The notes under the pieces were generated by a model that saw only the letters and a program-made list of their open reading frames with translations, was not told the origin of the DNA and searched no databases. 6,229 nucleotides of DNA from a virus: IMG/VR virus record IMGVR_UViG_3300029709_000126, positions 1 to 6,229 of that record; one strand, written 5' to 3'. A program made the position numbers and the translations under genes. Positions 1 to 6,229 of this stretch are shown here, piece by piece. How positions within the stretch are numbered: the stretch's first letter is position 1; each line of letters begins with the position of its first letter.

Positions 1-77
1 TTTTTAACGTCCGCTGGTACTATTGCGCGCAAGCCTGCAAGGCTTACAGCGAGTAGGCTCCGCCGTAGCGAGCGTAC
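1..77. repeat. Terminal redundancy, copy 1 of 2. It is identical to 6153-6229 and most likely a k=77 assembly overlap marking a circular genome of 6,152 bp.
   Basis: Direct comparison shows 1-77 equals 6153-6229 base for base. An exact 77-nt overlap is characteristic of circular contigs from de Bruijn assemblers at k=77. Confidence 0.9.
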
Positions 78-160
78 AAACAGGAGCGAAGCGACCAAGG
101 AAAGGACGCAGGACTTTCCTCCTTAAACACCCCGAGCGAAGCGAGCTTATTTTCTCGCTA
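11..160. promoter_or_regulatory. GC-rich structured island in the main intergenic region. It carries three hairpins (31-45 aagcct-gca-aggctt; 98-120 aggaaag-[9 nt]-ctttcct; 140-159 agcgag-[8 nt]-ctcgct) and six copies of the pentamer 'agcga'. Candidate replication origin or single-strand initiation signal.
   Basis: I count about 57% GC over 11-160 (85 of 150) in a visibly AT-rich genome. The stems were verified by base pairing. The region lies between the Rep stop and the promoter of the first gene. Confidence 0.45.
84..144. repeat. 11-bp direct repeat 'gagcgaagcga' at 84-94 and 134-144, 50 bp apart (iteron-like).
   Basis: Exact match found by inspection. Each copy is itself a tandem of 'agcga'. 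Two further 'agcgag' copies lie at 48-53 and 67-72. Confidence 0.6.
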
Positions 161-189
161 ATTCTGACTTTCAGCAGCCCCAAGAGGTT

Positions 190-211
190 AAAAAACCCAC
201 TCTTGCGTGGA
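190..211 (-). terminator. Weak intrinsic terminator candidate downstream of the Rep gene.
   Basis: On the minus strand the sequence is 'uccacgcaagaguggg' followed by 'uuuuuu'. This is a 5-bp stem including one U.G pair (211-207 with 200-196), a 6-nt loop, then a U6 run at 195-190. It starts 31 nt after the VP4 stop. Confidence 0.3.
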
Positions 212-241
212 TACGCAATAGGTGTGGTGTTAAAACCTTCC

Positions 242-1342
242 TTACGTTCCAACACTTGACAATAACATTTCGTGCTTCTCTAATATATATGTTTTGTTTC
301 GTTCCCAACTTTCGTAAATCTCTTTATTCCAATCGTTTTCTTCCATAGAAAATTCGGCCTGTGACGGTAACTTTGTTAGAATTTTCGTGCTGAGTTTCTC
401 AGCTAATTTTTTGGCTTCTGCGATAGCTTTGCGTTGTTTTTCTTCCTTCCTGCGTTCTTTCATTGCATTCCACGCTATTGGGTCGTCACCCATCACATTA
501 CGTCCATATTCCTGCCAATATCTTCTTAAATTGTCTATTGTTTTCCAATCGTCGGCTTTGACCTTTTCTCCAAATATCCATAATAGTCCTCTGTTTAGGT
601 TGTTTATCCACATTCTCTCTCGTTCCTCGTCGGTGAATATTTTGTTCTTGTAATATTTGGGCATGGCCATTTTGGTACCGTTTCGGAAGGTATAAGTGGC
701 TACGTCGATTCGTTTGTAGTTTTGTTTTTGCCAGAGGTAATCTAGCCTGTTCATGTATCCTGCACCGATTCCTGCGCTGGCTAATACGACTTGTTTGAAT
801 GTAGGGTGTTTGATGTCTACTTTTAACATGTATTTTGTTATGTAATTGACGCTTCTGCTGTTGCAATATTGACCTATAAAGGAAAATCCGTATTTCCAGT
901 GCTTTTTTATCAGCTCTGCGCTTTTTTGTCCGAAGAATATTCCGTGCAGGTGAATTCTGTCCCCATCTTCTCCTAGCTCTGTGACGCACCAATGTCTTAT
1001 GCTTTTTCCTGTGTCTTTTCTCGCCCTTTCTAGGAATAATCTTAGTCCTTTTGTTGCTATTTCGTTTGGGTTTAATTCCCAGTTTAAGTTGGTTTGTTCT
1101 TCCAGTTCTTTTATTCCTTCTGGCGATATGGTTAGCGTGACAAAGTATCCGAAGTTCAACTTTATTTCTTCTTCCAGTCGCACTCTCCATTCTCGTTGTT
1201 TTTCTTTACGGCATTCAATGCAGCAACCACACTTTACTGGAATGTAGTATAACCTCCTGTCTTTACAGACAGGAGGCTTGCCTTTGTTCTTTTTGTTAGG
1301 TTTGTATTTAGGGTTTCTAATGAATTTAGGATATAAACACAT
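242..1342 (-). CDS. Replication initiation protein (rolling-circle HUH endonuclease; Microviridae VP4 / gene A-like), 366 aa.
   Basis: ATG at 1342-1340. RCR motif I is 'FVTLTI', motif II (HUH) is 'RIHLHGIFFG', and motif III with two catalytic Tyr is 'NYITKYMLK' (Y-x-x-K-Y, as in the phiX174 A protein). The N-terminus carries a Cys cluster 'KCGCCIEC', a zinc-finger-like feature common in microvirus Reps. It is separated from the upstream VP2 stop by one nucleotide (TAA-t-ATG). Confidence 0.93.
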   Translation of the reverse strand: MCLYPKFIRNPKYKPNKKNKGKPPVCKDRRLYYIPVKCGCCIECRKEKQREWRVRLEEEIKLNFGYFVTLTISPEGIKELEEQTNLNWELNPNEIATKGLRLFLERARKDTGKSIRHWCVTELGEDGDRIHLHGIFFGQKSAELIKKHWKYGFSFIGQYCNSRSVNYITKYMLKVDIKHPTFKQVVLASAGIGAGYMNRLDYLWQKQNYKRIDVATYTFRNGTKMAMPKYYKNKIFTDEERERMWINNLNRGLLWIFGEKVKADDWKTIDNLRRYWQEYGRNVMGDDPIAWNAMKERRKEEKQRKAIAEAKKLAEKLSTKILTKLPSQAEFSMEENDWNKEIYESWERNKTYILEKHEMLLSSVGT

Positions 1343-1343
1343 A

Positions 1344-2480
1344 TTAGTATGATTCTGTATATGATTCCGTCGTGATTTGTCCTCCTTTATTTTTTGTTGA
1401 GACTGTTTTCGTTTGCGACTTCTTTCCTCGAAGTTTGATAAACATTTCGGCTATATTTTCTCCGAATTGTAAACCAATTTGAAGTCTTTCGTTGAATGTT
1501 TGCTCTTCCCATCGTTCAATCATTCCTTCTACTTGCTTACGGTATGTTTCTTTGTCCCAATCGTATTTATCGGCTAGTGCGTTTAATTCTTTTGCTGAGG
1601 CTTTTAATTGTTCAATCTGTGCGTCTCCTACTTCTACGTCTTTGTAGGTTTTGGCAATTGACGCTATTAATTGGGCATTCATATAATAAGCTGCGTCTAC
1701 CCTGTCTTCTAAGGTTCTCTTGTCGTATTCATATCCGAGTTTCTCTCTTTGGAATTCCCAGTATACCTTATGAGCCATTTCGCTGTAATAAGTCGCAACG
1801 GCGAATGCTTCGCTAATTTGAGCTCTTGATGAGGCTTCTTTGCTTTCGTTAAGCCTTTGTATGGTCTCTTCTGTACTTTTTTTTGCTTTTGCAAGTTCTT
1901 CCTCTGCTTCTTTTAGTTTTTTGCTGGCGATAAGCTCATCGATTTTGGCGCTCATTTCTTCAATCCGCTTTTCTGCTTCCCTGATATCCACACCTCCAAT
2001 CTTTTTCGCTTCTTCCTCTGCCTTTTTCGCTTGCGCTTCCGCCAAAGCTATCTGTGCGTCATTCATTCTTCTTTGTTGTTCAATCTGTTGTGTTTGTAGA
2101 GCCATGGCGACAGGATTACCTTGTGGTTGTTCTGGACTTGTCTGGTGTGCTCCTCCGCTGGCTCCCATGCCGCCCGCTCCGCTTTGTCCGTACATTAATC
2201 CTATGTTTAACCCTGCATCTTTTAAGTGCTGTACTTGGTTTTCTGCATTTGTGTAATCCCAGTAATCTTTGGCATATTGTTGTGATTTTGCTGCCGCTCC
2301 TTGCTGGTATTGGTTTTGCAGAGCCATGATGTATCTGTTGTATTTTGCTTGCTCATCCATGGCTTTTCTTGGTGACCAGCTTAATCCCAATATTTGGCTT
2401 ATTCCTCCTGTTAAGAGTCCTGTTAGGCCGCTGGCTCCTGAGCTGGCTAATCCTGATATAAATGATTCTTTGAATCCCAT
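1344..2480 (-). CDS. DNA pilot / minor capsid protein (Microviridae VP2 / gene H-like), 378 aa.
   Basis: ATG at 2480-2478. The N-terminus is Gly/Ser/Ala-rich and hydrophobic ('GLASSGASGLTGLLTGGISQILGL'). A second Gly-rich stretch ('GQSGAGGMGASGG') follows. There is a long E/K/A-rich predicted coiled coil ('AEAQAKKAEEEAKK...EELAKAKK'). The size and position between the capsid gene and Rep match microvirus pilot proteins, which form an alpha-helical DNA-translocating tube. Confidence 0.8.
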   Translation of the reverse strand: MGFKESFISGLASSGASGLTGLLTGGISQILGLSWSPRKAMDEQAKYNRYIMALQNQYQQGAAAKSQQYAKDYWDYTNAENQVQHLKDAGLNIGLMYGQSGAGGMGASGGAHQTSPEQPQGNPVAMALQTQQIEQQRRMNDAQIALAEAQAKKAEEEAKKIGGVDIREAEKRIEEMSAKIDELIASKKLKEAEEELAKAKKSTEETIQRLNESKEASSRAQISEAFAVATYYSEMAHKVYWEFQREKLGYEYDKRTLEDRVDAAYYMNAQLIASIAKTYKDVEVGDAQIEQLKASAKELNALADKYDWDKETYRKQVEGMIERWEEQTFNERLQIGLQFGENIAEMFIKLRGKKSQTKTVSTKNKGGQITTESYTESY

Positions 2481-2503
2481 ATTTGGTTTGTTTTAATTTT
2501 TCG

Positions 2504-2523
2504 CCCTTGTAATTTTACAAGGG
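2504..2523. promoter_or_regulatory. Perfect inverted repeat 'cccttgtaa tt ttacaaggg' (9-bp arms) in the leader of VP2, 23 nt upstream of its ATG.
   Basis: Counted directly: 2504-2512 is the exact reverse complement of 2515-2523. It has no flanking U-tract on the coding strand, so it is not a classic terminator. It could be an operator, an RNA stability stem, or an ssDNA structural element. Confidence 0.5.
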
Positions 2524-2570
2524 TTATACATATTACTAGATAATATATGCTACATGCGTACCATTTTGTG

Positions 2571-2607
2571 AAAAATGGAGGGAGAAGAGGTTAAACCTCT
2601 ATCTCCC
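2571..2607 (-). terminator. Intrinsic terminator-like or attenuator hairpin with a U-tract, between the 111-aa gene and VP2.
   Basis: On the minus strand, 'gggaga' (2607-2602) pairs with 'ucuccc' (2585-2580) and 'agagguu' pairs with 'aaccucu' (2600-2586 region). This gives a stem of about 12 bp with a 1-nt bulge and a 3-nt loop, followed by 'uccauuuuuca' (U5 at 2575-2571). It begins 19 nt after the 111-aa gene stop. Confidence 0.4.
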
Positions 2608-2626
2608 AGCCTTTTAGATGTGCGGT

Positions 2627-2962
2627 TTATCCCGCCGATTCCTGCTGCGAAGAATTGTCTCCTATTTCTTTCGAATCGAGGGCATTTTGTTCTTGTTGTT
2701 CAATTTTCCCGTAGTTTTTTGATTTTGCGAGATTTGCCTGGTTTACCGCCTCCATAGCTTGTTGTGCAATATCCCATCGGTCAGTTCTGATGTTGTAAGC
2801 TGGTAATACTCCGTCCTCTCTGTTTGTATAAATGATTGGTGCTCCATCTGTGATAGGTTCATTGTTCTCGGTAATTCTACGTACTTTGTTTTCAATACTT
2901 TCTCCTTCTTGAAATTCATAATTTGTTTTTGGAGGTCTTGAATATAACTTTGGTTTAATCAT
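2627..2962 (-). CDS. Hypothetical small protein (111 aa) between the major capsid and pilot genes. It has a basic N-terminus and an acidic Gln/Ser-rich C-terminal tail. A minor structural or scaffold role is possible.
   Basis: ATG at 2962-2960, 11 nt after the VP1 stop, with a TAA stop at 2629-2627. It is on the same strand and in the same operon, and is followed 19 nt later by a terminator-like hairpin. I recognise no family from the sequence alone. Confidence 0.6.
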   Translation of the reverse strand: MIKPKLYSRPPKTNYEFQEGESIENKVRRITENNEPITDGAPIIYTNREDGVLPAYNIRTDRWDIAQQAMEAVNQANLAKSKNYGKIEQQEQNALDSKEIGDNSSQQESAG

Positions 2963-2973
2963 AATTATAAGTT

Positions 2974-5055
2974 TTAAATATTAGGAATAACTTTTGCTGA
3001 CATGACACGTCTGGGTTTTATGTTAAATGCTATTTGTATCCAAAAATTTTGGGCAGTTATGTCTGTATCAGCGAAGATATTGTTGTAGAGATGTGGAAAT
3101 ACGTATGTTGTGTAGGTATTTATATCTCCAAATATTCTATTTAAGCACATCCAGCCTTCATTTTCGATGAGTGCGAAATTCCCATACGTTTTGTTTACAT
3201 TCGTCATGTATTCAATCCATGCAGGTTGTTTACCGATTGACTTATTTGACATTTCGAGAGATGTATTTGCGTTTAAGCTTCGGTACAATCTGTCTTGAAA
3301 GCCTATACCGTCAAGTTGTGGTTTATGCAAATCGTCTAGTGTCAATAAATAATTGTCCCATTCGTTACCTTGAAAATAATCTACTCGTGGAGTAATGGAG
3401 GTAATACAGAATATATAGCCTGGTTCGTCTGCCTTGAATATAATATTTCCTCCTTTGTGATTGGTCGCTAAACCTCTACCCGCTAACGTACCTAATGGTT
3501 GGTCTTCGGTTCCGCTGTTGTTTACAACTTCTTGGAATTCTATTTCAAGGGAGCTACCTCCGAGGTAAATAGGTGTTTCAATATGGTTTAAACCTCCGCT
3601 AGTATATACGGTTTGAATCCATGCGTTATAACTTCCATCGCTTACTGCAATTCTGTTAAGCATAGTATATACTTTTTTTGCAAGATTTAAGGTATCGAGT
3701 GTAAAGCTTCCTCCCGAAGTATCGATAGCTGTTATTGCATTAATTCCTGTTTCTCCATCAATCCATTCGGTATTAACCCAGTTTGTATTGATATCACTTT
3801 GATAGGTTTTAAGAGCAAGGCCTACCAATGGTTGTGAACAACTTGGTGCTATACCATTTTTTGTTTGTGTAGGTTTAAAGATGTCAACTATGAATCGCTC
3901 TTGTGCTATATATTGAGTTTTCCCTGCTGCGAGTATATTTTCTCTCATATCGTCGATTTCACTCAACTTGTAGCTATTATATCTCGCTTCTACGCTTGTG
4001 GCGAGAGAAGGCTTGTTTACATAAAAATATGTTTTAAAAGTTCTTTCGGTTGGGAGGAATGTAGTTGCGTTAATTTTATAATACTCTACACCTTCGACGG
4101 CGTTGCTTACGAATTCTGTAATGTTTGTTATAACTTCTTTTTCTGTGAGATTGTTTATAGTCCCATATATTTGGATTGCTACTTGACCTCCTACGCCTCC
4201 GCCAGTTTCAACTAGCCAACCAGTTTGCATGTTTATGTTTACTTCTATTTGTCCTGAGTCCTTATCTTGGGTGTATGGCTTTATAGCTAATACCCAAATT
4301 TGGTAGTCTGTGTTTTTTTTAGGATAATCACCTGTAGAGTCTATTAAGTTTGGTATACCCGTAGCGACAATAGACCATGAGCTCTTTTTATCGCTGCTAT
4401 TTGCAAGAGTTATGCTCATTTGTCCTTCGTCGAGAGTGCTTGCTATTTGTTTGTATAAATAATAGGTATTTCCGGATATTACATAAAAATTTTCTTCTTG
4501 TTTGTTTGCATAATAATTTTTAAAGATGTCGTAATACATCATTAGTTTAATGCAGTTGAAAGTTTTATTTCTTGAACCATAAGGCTCTAAGGTTGAGAGA
4601 GCTCTTACCCCTGTATATGCAACTAGTGAGCTTGGATTAACTTCATTGAGTAGAGAGTCGTTACTTCCTTCCATTTTAGTCTTATCGGTATATAGGCTAT
4701 AAGATATTGGAAATATAGGAAATTTTACCTGTTTCATATTTAAACCTATATTTAATGCATTGTTATGCAACATAGCATTATACAGTCTGATAGGACAGAA
4801 GAAGAAGTCGTTTTGCTGTTTAAAGCTTCCGAATAGAGGTCCAATGGTTGGGTGTGTTAGAGTGTGACACTTAGTTTCGATAGGGAAGGTATCCCCTGGT
4901 AATATTAAATGATATAATGTAGGAATTAGAGTTCCTACGGCTGCTGATGTTCGGCAGACACTGCTAAGGTCGTGTGTACTACGGTTATAATTATTCAACC
5001 GTGTCATCATTTTTTTACCCCCGCCGAGGGTGTTTTTTCCAATACTTACTTTCAT
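2974..5055 (-). CDS. Major capsid protein (Microviridae VP1 / gene F-like), 693 aa.
   Basis: The N-terminal region 'NRSTHDLSSVCRTSAAVGTLIPTLYHLILPGDTF' matches the conserved microvirus capsid motif (R-N-R-x-x-DLS ... G-x-L-I/V-P ... LPGDTF). The large size with insertions is typical of gut (Alpavirinae-like) capsids. Its start overlaps the stop of the preceding 83-aa gene (ATGA at 5055-5052). An alternative start at the internal 'MMTRL' cannot be excluded. Confidence 0.95.
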   Translation of the reverse strand: MKVSIGKNTLGGGKKMMTRLNNYNRSTHDLSSVCRTSAAVGTLIPTLYHLILPGDTFPIETKCHTLTHPTIGPLFGSFKQQNDFFFCPIRLYNAMLHNNALNIGLNMKQVKFPIFPISYSLYTDKTKMEGSNDSLLNEVNPSSLVAYTGVRALSTLEPYGSRNKTFNCIKLMMYYDIFKNYYANKQEENFYVISGNTYYLYKQIASTLDEGQMSITLANSSDKKSSWSIVATGIPNLIDSTGDYPKKNTDYQIWVLAIKPYTQDKDSGQIEVNINMQTGWLVETGGGVGGQVAIQIYGTINNLTEKEVITNITEFVSNAVEGVEYYKINATTFLPTERTFKTYFYVNKPSLATSVEARYNSYKLSEIDDMRENILAAGKTQYIAQERFIVDIFKPTQTKNGIAPSCSQPLVGLALKTYQSDINTNWVNTEWIDGETGINAITAIDTSGGSFTLDTLNLAKKVYTMLNRIAVSDGSYNAWIQTVYTSGGLNHIETPIYLGGSSLEIEFQEVVNNSGTEDQPLGTLAGRGLATNHKGGNIIFKADEPGYIFCITSITPRVDYFQGNEWDNYLLTLDDLHKPQLDGIGFQDRLYRSLNANTSLEMSNKSIGKQPAWIEYMTNVNKTYGNFALIENEGWMCLNRIFGDINTYTTYVFPHLYNNIFADTDITAQNFWIQIAFNIKPRRVMSAKVIPNI

Positions 5056-5303
5056 TGTTGTTGTTGTTTATAAAGGTTATTGAGTTTTTGGCACATTGCT
5101 CCGATGATGGATAAGTCTAGGTTGGTGAGACTGAAATTTTCTTCAAGGTATTGTTCTGCCTCTTCTTGACTGTCAAATAAGAGTGGTGACACTACATATT
5201 CTCCCACTATGAAGGTGAATTTATCCTCTTCGCCTATTTTGACGGCTCTCACTTTGACAACATCTTGTCTTGTTGCCCAATCTAATGCTTCTTGTTGTTC
5301 CAT
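5052..5303 (-). CDS. Hypothetical acidic protein (83 aa, about 15 D/E against 7 K/R), translationally coupled to the capsid gene. Candidate scaffolding or assembly protein.
   Basis: ATG at 5303-5301, 2 nt after the 92-aa ORF stop (TAA-tt-ATG). Its TGA stop overlaps the VP1 ATG (ATGA). The predicted alpha/beta pattern is helix 'EQQEALDWATRQ', strand 'VVKVRAVKI', strand 'FTFIVGEYVV', then acidic helix 'DSQEEAEQYLEEN'. Confidence 0.6.
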   Translation of the reverse strand: MEQQEALDWATRQDVVKVRAVKIGEEDKFTFIVGEYVVSPLLFDSQEEAEQYLEENFSLTNLDLSIIGAMCQKLNNLYKQQQQ

Positions 5304-5305
5304 AA

Positions 5306-5584
5306 TTAAATGTTTTTGATTGCTTCAATTTTTGTTAATATAATTCTGCTTTTGCGTAATTCGTCTTCGAGCCGTTCTGCTTCTTTGAATAGACAGCAAT
5401 TCATGACGATTCTGAATCCTTTTAAGAGATTCCCTGTGTCGTAGTCAAAACCTTCCCACATAAGGCAATATGCACCTTCGCTGAATGCTTCGAAAGGTAT
5501 CTTGGCGGATTTAACCCATTCTTTTTTACGGAATTTCCCGTATTTCGTAATCGATGGTATCATTGTGATGTGAAATTGAATCAT
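5306..5584 (-). CDS. Hypothetical protein (92 aa).
   Basis: ATG at 5584-5582. It lies in the operon, on the same strand, in a tight gene array, and overlaps the preceding 72-aa ORF by 59 nt out of frame. No recognisable motifs. An alternative start at Met8 is possible. Confidence 0.5.
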   Translation of the reverse strand: MIQFHITMIPSITKYGKFRKKEWVKSAKIPFEAFSEGAYCLMWEGFDYDTGNLLKGFRIVMNCCLFKEAERLEDELRKSRIILTKIEAIKNI

Positions 5585-5744
5585 TTTTACATTTGTTGTT
5601 TACATTTACGGTATTTCCAGATATTCGCCAGGTGCTGCCGCAACTTTCTATTATATAGGATATTGCCAATAATATGGCGGCACCTATAATACTTGCTACT
5701 GTTTTCCAGTTTTCCTTTAAGAATTGCTTGATTTCTTCTTTCAT
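5526..5744 (-). CDS. Small single-pass membrane protein (72 aa). Candidate lysis (amurin or holin-like) or other membrane-targeted protein.
   Basis: ATG at 5744-5742, one nucleotide after the stop of the first gene (TAG-a-ATG). The protein has a charged N-terminus 'MKEEIKQFLKENWK', then a roughly 20-residue hydrophobic helix 'TVASIIGAAILLAISYII', then a polar C-terminal tail rich in N/S/K/H/D. Confidence 0.5.
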   Translation of the reverse strand: MKEEIKQFLKENWKTVASIIGAAILLAISYIIESCGSTWRISGNTVNVNNKCKNDSISHHNDTIDYEIREIP

Positions 5745-5745
5745 T

Positions 5746-6063
5746 CTAATAAATTTTATAGATTTGAAAATATAAAGTTTCTTTAAATAAATTCCTTATG
5801 GTTGCTACTATTACTCTAATTTCCTTTTTTGAGTAGCCTGTTATTGTTTCGGGAACATTGTATCTGTGTTTCCCTAATAAATCGGCTACCCACAAATGTC
5901 GTGAATTGCTGTGTGTAATGGTTTTAATTATTTTAAAATTATCATAAATATCTTGATAATAATGACATCTTCTGCTGGCTTCTTCTTCGGTTTTTCCGCT
6001 TATGAGAGCTATGTACTTTTCATCTTTATTGAACAAAATGTGTGATACTTTTTTTCTTTCCAT
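5746..6063 (-). CDS. Hypothetical protein, first gene of the operon (105 aa from ATG 6063). The longest ORF version starts at ATG 6132 (128 aa).
   Basis: A Bacteroides-type promoter (TTTG 6120-6117 and TAtcTTTG 6096-6089) lies inside the 6132-start version and 25 nt upstream of the 6063 ATG (MERKKVSHILF...), so I prefer the shorter start. The predicted alpha/beta pattern is 'VSHILF', 'YIALISG', helix 'TEEEASRRCHYYQDIYDNFKIIK', 'HLWVADLLG'. No known family recognised. The TAG stop is at 5748-5746. Confidence 0.6.
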   Translation of the reverse strand: MERKKVSHILFNKDEKYIALISGKTEEEASRRCHYYQDIYDNFKIIKTITHSNSRHLWVADLLGKHRYNVPETITGYSKKEIRVIVATIRNLFKETLYFQIYKIY

Positions 6064-6088
6064 AATCTTGTGTTTTTTTGTTACAATA

Positions 6089-6120
6089 CAAAGATAATAC
6101 AGAAAGTCCCCTTTTCCAAA
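6089..6120 (-). promoter_or_regulatory. Bacteroidetes sigma-A-type promoter: -33 TTTG (6120-6117), 20-nt spacer, -7 TAtcTTTG (6096-6089).
   Basis: On the minus strand the sequence reads 'TTTGgaaaaggggactttctgtatTAtcTTTG', which matches the Bacteroides consensus (TTTG, 19-21 nt, TAnnTTTG). It is the only TAnnTTTG on the coding strand that has a correctly spaced TTTG. It sits in the only sizeable non-coding gap upstream of the gene array. No gene in the genome has a Shine-Dalgarno sequence. Confidence 0.5.
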
Positions 6121-6152
6121 TAAATATCCCATTTTAACATATGTAATTAACG

Positions 6153-6229
6153 TTTTTAACGTCCGCTGGTACTATTGCGCGCAAGCCTGCAAGGCTTACA
6201 GCGAGTAGGCTCCGCCGTAGCGAGCGTAC
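6153..6229. repeat. Terminal redundancy, copy 2 of 2 (duplicate of 1-77).
   Basis: Exact 77/77 identity with the window start. The sequence after 6152 simply re-enters the genome at position 1. Confidence 0.9.

Follow-up and report, generated by a model that had tools for sequence, protein, structure and literature searches.

A conserved 72-residue protein of a gut microvirus is a candidate lysis factor with a lipoprotein-like export signal

The window analyzed here is the whole 6,229-nucleotide (nt) stretch of the IMG/VR virus record IMGVR_UViG_3300029709_000126 (positions 1 to 6,229), a complete circular microvirus genome. Among its small genes is an open reading frame (ORF) of 72 codons at 5526-5744 (stop codon included), on the - strand. 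Its product (MKEEIKQFLKENWKTVASIIGAAILLAISYIIESCGSTWRISGNTVNVNNKCKNDSISHHNDTIDYEIREIP; 72 amino acids (aa)) is predicted to be a precursor that gives rise to a small peptide, which is exported and probably lipid-modified. The ORF is a genuine, strongly conserved gene. Lysis is the best-supported role of the 72-aa protein, and the sequence evidence gives that role roughly an even chance. Our best explanation as a whole, a core-gene lipopeptide precursor that would effect lysis, is only slightly less than evenly probable. Outside the phiX group, microviruses have no recognized lysis gene (PMC7062461, PMC3394797).

A protein search with the 72-aa product retrieved 548 homologs at E <= 0.01. The best 120 of these are 81-94% identical to it, nearly all are 72 aa long, and almost all are encoded on contigs of at most ~6.4 kb. 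Close relatives conserve the ORF: each of the first 16 IMG/VR relatives retrieved has it open, with one stopping early, at codon 70, and one having Gly in place of Cys52. Across these 16 relatives, the ratio of nonsynonymous to synonymous substitution (dN/dS) was computed by the Nei-Gojobori method. For codons 1-52, it is 0.069 in frame, compared to 0.93 and 1.02 in the other two sense frames. Constraint is distributed unevenly along the gene. In codons 1-14, dN/dS is 0.011, while the proportion of synonymous differences (pS) is 0.70, so that synonymous change is saturated; the constraint therefore acts on the protein. Codons 35-52 are nearly as constrained (0.022). The hydrophobic segment (codons 15-34) is the least constrained part (0.26). 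In the close family, the invariant residues of the N-terminus are E4, F8, L9, E11, N12, W13 and K14, and those of the peptide behind the hydrophobic segment are C35, G36, S37, W39, G43, N44, T45, V46, V48 and C52. The motif CGSTW is retained in distant homologs.

The original prediction had described a polar tail. This tail (codons 53-72, 5529-5588) evolves mainly under the frame of the next gene, an ORF of 92 aa, the start of which overlaps it at 5529-5584. For the overlap and tail, dN/dS is 3.7 when read in the own frame and 0.073 in that of the 92-aa gene, which therefore determines much of the tail's sequence. The tail nevertheless keeps an N-D-S motif (N54/D55), which distant relatives conserve as D-S-T.

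We predict that the product consists of five parts. The first is a cytoplasmic N-terminus of 14 residues (MKEEIKQFLKENWK, 5703-5744), a conserved amphipathic n-region for which AlphaFold2 (AF2) models a helix at residues 2-11 (predicted local distance difference test (pLDDT) ~80-89). The second is a hydrophobic segment of 18-20 residues with interchangeable sequence (codons 15-32, TVASIIGAAILLAISYII, 5649-5702), either the h-region of a signal peptide or a transmembrane (TM) helix. It lies within the AF2 helix 13-36, and these two helices are the only confident ones. The third is a lipobox-like junction, a small residue followed by Cys35 (codons 33-35, E-S-C, 5640-5648). It leads into the fourth part, a conserved core (GSTWRISGNTVNVNNKC) that is predicted to be periplasmic; codons 35-52 (CGSTWRISGNTVNVNNKC, 5589-5642) are the most conserved stretch of the predicted periplasmic peptide. 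The tail is the fifth part.

As first proposed, there is a single hydrophobic segment: Kyte-Doolittle windows of 19 residues reach 2.0 (residues 14-34). For all other products of the coding strand, the corresponding maximum is at most 1.2, so that the 72-aa product alone is membrane-grade. Besides the N-terminus of the pilot protein, it is the only small membrane-targeted product of the genome. The gene does code for a real small membrane-targeted protein. The proposed TM helix, however, resembles an export signal. It is followed by an invariant junction of a small residue and Cys35, the mark of a lipoprotein signal peptide, which the original prediction had missed.

Distant homologs were collected by an exhaustive profile search, from the Dulem virus 224 (ORF at 5320-5619) and from microviruses fetched through their capsid genes. 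They share a common plan, in which a short N-terminus that usually contains a Trp is followed by a hydrophobic run, then by a small residue plus Cys, and finally by a polar peptide with many N, S, T and K residues. When 17 diverse members are aligned, only the column of the Cys that corresponds to Cys35 is invariant. All 322 retrieved proteins have S, G or A at position -1 of this Cys; positions -3 and -4 are almost always hydrophobic, and position -2 is E, G, Q, I or N. Several distant members have canonical lipoboxes (LSAC, IIGC, LGGC, LQAC, VQSC). The PROSITE PS51257-type rule for lipoproteins asks for K or R in the first seven residues, a hydrophobic run, and [LVI]-[ASTVIGCQ...]-[GAS]-Cys with the Cys at residues 15-35. 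A strict pattern of this type is passed by 109 of the 322 proteins, and by 318 once E or N is allowed at -2 and C or Y at -3/-4. The window protein agrees with the n-region and h-region parts of the rule (K2 and K6 are present, residues 15-32 are free of D, E, R and K, and the 19-residue hydropathy is 2.0), and its box, I-E-S-C35, fits at -1 and -3 but, because of its Glu, not at -2. Judged from these features, it is quite likely that the 72-aa protein is inserted N-in/C-out and is a lipoprotein precursor. The alternative to a lipoprotein precursor is an uncleaved signal-anchor.

A beta-hairpin closed by a disulfide between C35 and C52 was considered as the defining feature of the family and was rejected, because the second Cys, present in 198 of the 322 proteins, is missing from many relatives. 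A lipid-modified Cys, moreover, is unable to form a disulfide. In Bacteroidetes, acidic residues after the Cys are needed for the surface export of lipoproteins. No acidic residues follow the Cys in the window protein, and the peptide would therefore face the periplasm.

The phage phiX174 lyses its host with protein E, an inhibitor of MraY that is wholly embedded in gene D and has a specific TM helix as its active part. The original prediction had drawn an analogy to E. There is some likeness, in that both are small membrane proteins of microviruses that have compact, overlapping genes and no endolysin (PMC3394797). The described gene borders are also correct. The 72-aa ORF is coupled to the upstream gene (the stop codon TAG of the 128-aa ORF, 5748-5746, is followed by one base, 5745, and then by the ATG at 5744-5742), and it shares 59 nt (5526-5584) out of frame with the 92-aa ORF that starts inside it. 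The analogy is nevertheless not supported. The 72-aa gene is not embedded in another one, since the overlap covers just these 59 nt at the 3' end, and its hydrophobic segment is replaceable. In three relatives (L021, L023 and L029), the segment is replaced by the unrelated ISLLLILILIVII / ISLLLILILIVIISCQGC, while the flanks, the N-terminus MKEKIKQFIKENW and the post-Cys peptide CGSSWKITGNTVNVNNKC, are kept. To swap the segment and keep the flanks is the mode of evolution of an export signal and the opposite of that seen in phiX174 E. This bears on an E-like mechanism, in which an uncleaved TM helix would block MraY or MurJ within the bilayer. Such a role would suit a small single-helix protein from a genome without an endolysin, and four TM positions (G21, A22, L25, L26) are indeed invariant in the close family. 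The wholesale replacement of the helix, its dN/dS of 0.26, the stronger constraint on the two soluble flanks and the invariant lipobox-like Cys speak against it, as does the lack of a phiX-type lysis-protein family in the Pfam scan. We consider this mechanism highly improbable.

The original prediction was right that a lysis cassette is missing: there is no recognizable endolysin or holin in the window (Pfam, PHROG and NCBIfam scans). The 72-aa protein is a candidate for lysis because no hydrolase or holin was found and because it is the sole hydrophobic product of the coding strand. What we call the long form of its gene occurs in 58 of the 90 sources examined, one or two genes upstream of VP1, the gene for the major capsid protein. 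This count includes the window and leaves out two spurious alternative-frame matches in the microvirus phiHBP1. The long form is present in every locus that was fetched through a VP1 with at least 54% identity. Profile searches with two overlapping profiles returned 3810 and 2627 clusters (at 90% identity). The listed matches are on microvirus-sized contigs or records, or on concatemers of them, and are unnamed or annotated as hypothetical, except for a few automatic FliL labels. According to these searches, the wider family is a very large, undescribed microvirus protein family. In GenBank, the gene occurs in microviruses of lemurs, rodents, tortoises, rats, chickens and humans, either unannotated or as hypothetical. 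A tblastn search with the 72-aa protein against GenBank phages returned nothing.

Some sequences and matches were set aside. The cluster representative P0123 is an artefact, as it continues into a stretch with the translation ...IGRAHV, which we take to be Illumina adapter read-through; another representative, P0121, is frameshifted past residue 55. A 491-aa repeat protein with SWTIGG-TV-V motifs has merely a local resemblance. The matches to a PHROG holin (E 0.04), to outer-membrane proteins and to Pfam Transgly_assoc, and the JGI label 'FliL', are at the level of composition only. A prophage was considered for the contig L093 (JGI Ga0074315_1001455, 23,483 nt), which carries a relative, and was rejected. 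The contig is a head-to-tail concatemer of a ~6-kb microvirus genome, in which one set of eight genes recurs more than three times. Amplification or assembly probably produced it as an artefact.

The gene subtype is independent of the VP1 type. Genomes with a VP1 of 60% and of 88% identity share copies of the gene that are 85-94% identical, and some genomes with an 88% VP1 carry a variant of 38-54% identity. Likewise, the subtype does not track the type of VP2, the pilot protein. High conservation of a core gene, with no link to the receptor-binding proteins, suggests that it serves an essential step and has a conserved target in the host.

The N-terminal module of the wider family has relatives in Bacteroidetes chromosomes. 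The N-terminal 29-31 residues of the family members L042 and L036 match Pfam DUF6486 (PF20096; E 7.5e-15) and the NCBIfam smalltalk protein (NF033879; E 1.2e-13). A smalltalk protein is annotated in Bacteroides thetaiotaomicron (PMC10434189). A degenerate DNA pattern made from the L042 and L036 sequences retrieved at least 120 metagenome stretches, 80 of which were analyzed; for the residues that the pattern fixes, conservation is built in. Three of the 80 are microvirus contigs. The remaining 77, on contigs of ~1 kb to 255 kb, encode proteins of 30-46 aa (e.g., MKKETWKTIIQVIVSILTAALTALGTTSCMGHGPIAF), with matches to the full DUF6486 model at E 2.5e-15. Directly upstream of smalltalk, at least 43 loci have an HU-HIG gene (PF18291). 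The HU-HIG clade is confined to Bacteroidetes, and the 2017 paper on HU-HIG reported almost no conserved operon partners for it (PMC5499826). Loci from this set (L098-L177) include, as examples, L155, L113, L135, L160, L162 and L139. A tblastn search with a smalltalk-like N-terminus against plasmids returned nothing, and in the literature, we found no description of microvirus lipoproteins or lipoboxes, nor of a function for DUF6486/smalltalk.

The bacterial proteins and the window protein are built alike in their N-terminal part: both begin with a few K/E-rich residues that include a Trp (KETWKT; KENWKT in the window protein), continue with about 20 hydrophobic residues, and then have a small residue plus Cys. 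The bacterial members differ in their length of 30-46 aa and end 1-17 residues past the Cys, whereas the window protein continues with a conserved 17-residue peptide and the tail, and scores below the family thresholds. Profile comparisons with hhalign give a probability of 97.4% (E 1.4e-11) for the long microvirus forms (A5) against bacterial smalltalk (A7), and of 87% (E 3.8e-6) for the broadened window family (A8) against A5. One protein, L031, bridges the window family and the long smalltalk-like forms, and both occupy the slot one or two genes upstream of VP1. From the profile matches, we regard the wider family as truly homologous to smalltalk in its N-terminal module; for the window protein itself, homology via intermediates is probable.

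Several bacterial smalltalk genes neighbor genes for peptidoglycan hydrolases. Among the 59 loci with enough downstream sequence, a T7-lysozyme-type Amidase_2 (PF01510) is encoded directly downstream in four, and a degenerate amidase-like gene in nine. One further locus has the amidase directly upstream, and in five loci, a Peptidase_M15_3 gene lies two genes upstream. The smalltalk-linked hydrolases, judged by eye, have no hydrophobic N-terminal signal segment in the sequences shown.

A second link to hydrolases comes from the microviruses. The Bacteroides fragilis microvirus isolate phiHBP1 has an M15 peptidase (PMC13064476). It was considered as a close relative of the window and was rejected, being distant and using this peptidase. 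Homologs of the peptidase are annotated as endolysins in Bacteroides tailed phages, and they occur in ~130 GenBank microviruses. None of the 58 long-form sources has an M15 gene, and none of the nine M15 microviruses examined has the long form (Fisher p ~1e-10, uncorrected for relatedness). Near the peptidase gene, three of eight sampled M15 microviruses have an unannotated, DUF6486-like ORF of 26-29 aa: L223 (OR148991.1) at 3707-3796 (DUF6486 E 3.3e-10), L221 (PP511383.1) at ~4863-4940 (E 7e-5), and L220 (PQ006733.1) at 6040-6126, where it overlaps the stop codon of the peptidase gene (E 8.7e-4). It is possible that the smalltalk-like ORF and the M15 peptidase form a minimal holin-endolysin pair in these three. 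Two arrangements appear in this sample. In the first, there is a hydrolase, and in three of eight genomes, a minimal smalltalk-like membrane peptide is encoded nearby. In the second, there is no hydrolase, and the smalltalk-like module is extended by the Cys and the conserved periplasmic peptide. Two mutually exclusive arrangements are the pattern expected of alternative lysis modules. Our case for a lysis-related role is thus based on the exclusivity of long form and M15 and on the homologous module next to peptidoglycan-hydrolase genes.

The hydrolase neighborhood also permits a sub-variant of this explanation, in which the N-terminal membrane peptide would act as a holin-like trigger. It would permeabilize or depolarize the inner membrane and thereby free signal-less host hydrolases (e.g., the smalltalk-linked Amidase_2), while the tail would be regulatory. 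In phage T7, the holin gp17.5, with a single TM domain (TMD), pairs with gp3.5, a signal-less Amidase_2 lysozyme. The smalltalk-like module resembles such a holin insofar as the homologous short ORFs lie directly beside Amidase_2 or M15 genes that lack a hydrophobic N-terminal signal, both in bacteria and in microviruses. The conserved cytoplasmic N-terminus would also fit. The window genome, however, differs in having no endolysin in the scans, and the protein has no significant match to a holin family (its only PHROG match in the lysis category, to a holin at E 0.04, is non-significant). Adjacency to a hydrolase gene is not found in the window; only the short ORFs of the three M15 microviruses and some bacterial loci have it. 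In addition, the periplasmic peptide (dN/dS 0.022) is as conserved as the N-terminus, which is too much for a dispensable tail, and the Bacteroides tailed phages that were sampled carry unrelated holins. A holin-like trigger is thus quite unlikely on present grounds.

The main rival to a role in lysis is a lipoprotein for superinfection exclusion or progeny protection that would block a receptor from the periplasmic side, or DNA entry. T5 Llp (which acts on FhuA), the Cor proteins and Ltp of phage TP-J34 are small exclusion lipoproteins of phages, and the small lipoprotein Rz1 is an o-spanin. The 72-aa protein has the same general build as these periplasm-acting lipoproteins (a small lipoprotein signature and, as there are no acidic residues after the Cys, a predicted periplasmic location). 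Also, gut microviruses and their hosts persist together, and E. coli that carries gokushovirus DNA is immune to superinfection (PMC7062461). Several observations argue against exclusion. Within its clade, the gene belongs to the core, is under extreme conservation and is nowhere decayed, and it is the adjacent 128-aa slot that is variable. Its subtype varies independently of the types of VP1 and VP2, which would be expected to follow receptor and entry. No prophage copies were found in 185,579 representative genomes (two matches, in an Acidimicrobiia metagenome-assembled genome and in Lysinibacillus, are spurious), and this search pointed to no host. The window protein has no match in PADLOC-DB, and the matches of two other members are at chance level. 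The M15 exclusivity in the sample and the homologous module beside cell-wall hydrolases also speak against it. We consider exclusion unlikely. No sequence similarity to Llp, Cor or Rz1 was found. With respect to Rz1, the window protein further differs in that it is not proline-rich and that the genome encodes no i-spanin partner and no second membrane protein; one family member has a weak Rz-like PHROG match (E 0.006).

Under the lysis explanation, we predict the following course. The protein would be inserted N-in/C-out through Sec. Cys35 would probably be modified with diacylglycerol, and the precursor would probably be cut by signal peptidase II. The products would be a periplasmic lipopeptide of ~38 residues and a smalltalk-related membrane peptide of 34 residues. 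Late in infection, action on a conserved component of the host envelope would result in lysis and release, the same job that the M15 endolysin does in other gut microviruses. Rather than an E-like helix, the periplasmic peptide, the membrane peptide or both would most likely bring this about, with a conserved target in the envelope.

A model for a precursor with two products is found in colicin systems. Colicin lysis lipoproteins (Lysis_col) cause release or quasi-lysis on their own, their stable signal peptide aids killing, and they act via the outer-membrane phospholipase A. They share with the window protein a very small precursor, a lipoprotein signal and a polar mature part of ~30-38 residues. 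They differ in that they belong to another host phylum and that the phospholipase A route is not known to operate for the window protein. Pfam scans of the window protein and 17 family members gave no Lysis_col match at E up to 1. It is tempting to speculate that one gene supplies two lysis effectors, the 34-residue membrane peptide as a minimal holin and the 38-residue lipopeptide to activate or replace a wall hydrolase (for instance, by unleashing the smalltalk-linked amidase of the host), although we rate this as doubtful. If true, it would define a new class of single-gene lysis in single-stranded DNA phages, and the smalltalk miniproteins of Bacteroidetes would be membrane gatekeepers for signal-less peptidoglycan hydrolases.

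A number of observations weigh against the lysis lipopeptide explanation and its parts. The window's lipobox has a Glu at -2, which the strict PROSITE-type pattern forbids, and the Cys, at residue 35, is at the upper limit; close relatives have Gly at -2, one base change from the window's Glu. The conservation of the N-terminus is unusual for a mere signal peptide. A simple signal-peptide role leaves the conserved cytoplasmic N-terminus unexplained, which suggests a separate function for the N-terminal membrane peptide. AF2 finds no confident fold for residues 36-72 (pLDDT <50). The Fisher test ignores phylogeny. The short smalltalk-like ORFs beside M15 genes have no Cys, so that the Cys is not needed for the action of the module there. 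In 31 related microvirus loci, there is no long form, no M15 and, where checked, no smalltalk; with neither arrangement present, another route to lysis must exist. Most bacterial smalltalk loci have only the HU-HIG neighbor and no hydrolase, and two hydrolase-linked islands that were examined are chromosomal, beside polysaccharide-synthesis genes, and not prophages. The Bacteroides tailed phages sampled (B124-14, BO1 and, by annotation, cr4_1) have holins with multiple TMDs, and none of the four tailed-phage regions scanned has a smalltalk-like ORF beside its M15 endolysin. Finally, the window protein (full length or residues 1-35) has no DUF6486 match at E up to 5, among CGS(A/T)W-type N-termini the closest one has an E of 0.037 with the DUF6486/smalltalk models, and the window families match A7 weakly (A8 47%, close family A2 8%). 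Therefore, the link to smalltalk runs through intermediates such as L031.

The absence of the gene from the 31 related genomes also speaks against a non-lytic role in the envelope, either in membrane anchoring of replication or assembly, or in remodeling of the outer membrane or of vesicles. A core gene among small genes of unassigned function upstream of the capsid gene might serve such a purpose. Apart from the overlapping 92-aa gene, there is no co-varying partner gene, and this role would leave the hydrolase link unexplained. We regard it as very unlikely.

Few phages of the mammalian gut are as abundant as microviruses. From a single ORF, the analysis led to a defined, very large family with thousands of 90%-identity clusters and a clear anatomy. 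This anatomy offers sites for mutation, namely C35, the N-terminal helix and the GSTW...NNKC peptide. If the lysis role is true, the family would provide a new protein-antibiotic lead against Bacteroidales, and a function would be suggested for smalltalk, a miniprotein family common in the human microbiome.

The window carries an exact direct repeat of 77 nt (1-77 = 6153-6229), so that the genome is circularly permuted with a unit of 6152 nt. Every gene of the window is on the - strand. In the direction of transcription, the 128-aa ORF (5746-6132) abuts the 72-aa ORF upstream. Its slot is variable, mostly with a non-homologous gene there in relatives. The 72-aa ORF is followed by the 92-aa ORF (5306-5584), which overlaps its 3' end, is conserved (83% mean identity among relatives) and has no hydrophobic segment, and then by an 83-aa ORF (5052-5303) directly upstream of VP1 (2974-5055; PHROG 514, E 1e-47; Pfam Phage_F). 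An ORF of 111 aa comes after VP1, followed by the genes for the DNA pilot protein (1344-2480) and the replication initiator (242-1342), both identified by Pfam/PHROG annotation. In Alpavirinae, as described by Roux et al., an unassigned ORF comes after VP1, followed by VP2 and then VP4 (PMC3394797), and the gene order of the window is consistent with this description. A whole-genome megablast of the window against GenBank phages gave no match; the closest GenBank capsid, 57.5% identical, is that of the Dulem virus 224 from lemur faeces.

The leaders of all window genes are A/T-rich, and none has a Shine-Dalgarno sequence. The small-gene cluster is headed by a promoter-like motif, TTTG-N20-TATCTTTG (6089-6120, - strand), which is of Bacteroides type and agrees with the Bacteroides promoter consensus. 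The pattern TTTG-N20-TAnnTTTG has two matches in the genome, compared to 0.24 expected from shuffles. The window's motif is kept in L004, L014, L024 and L027, and several relatives have a second promoter-like copy ~62 nt upstream of the homolog of the 72-aa gene. Instances of TTTG-N19-21-TAnnTTTG in relatives are at 3414-3445 in L003, 2586-2617 in L007, 5095-5126 in L011, 5495-5526 in L024 and 5244-5275 in L027. As the window's motif lies inside the annotated 5' end of the 128-aa ORF, the true start of this ORF may be the ATG at 6063 (MERKKVS...).

Because of the promoter-like motif, the absent Shine-Dalgarno sequences, the HU-HIG neighbors of smalltalk and the smalltalk annotation in B. thetaiotaomicron, the hosts of this clade of ~6.15-kb circular gut microviruses are most likely Bacteroidales. 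The hosts of Alpavirinae are mostly Bacteroides and Prevotella (PMC9239249).

Two further small proteins may be mentioned. In the tailed phage B124-14 (L226), ORF013c (4476-4892) is located downstream of the genes for a holin, the M15 endolysin and a spanin-like protein. It codes for a lipoprotein signal that is followed by an acidic stretch (LTSC-GDDSD) and looks like a candidate for a surface-exported lipoprotein or an o-spanin. The 83-aa protein of the window has counterparts in all clades sampled, including those without the lipoprotein-like gene (a subset of L047-L092, e.g., L054 784-1179 and L089 1741-2016). Its C-terminal end has a mildly hydrophobic W-x-L-I...I-V motif.

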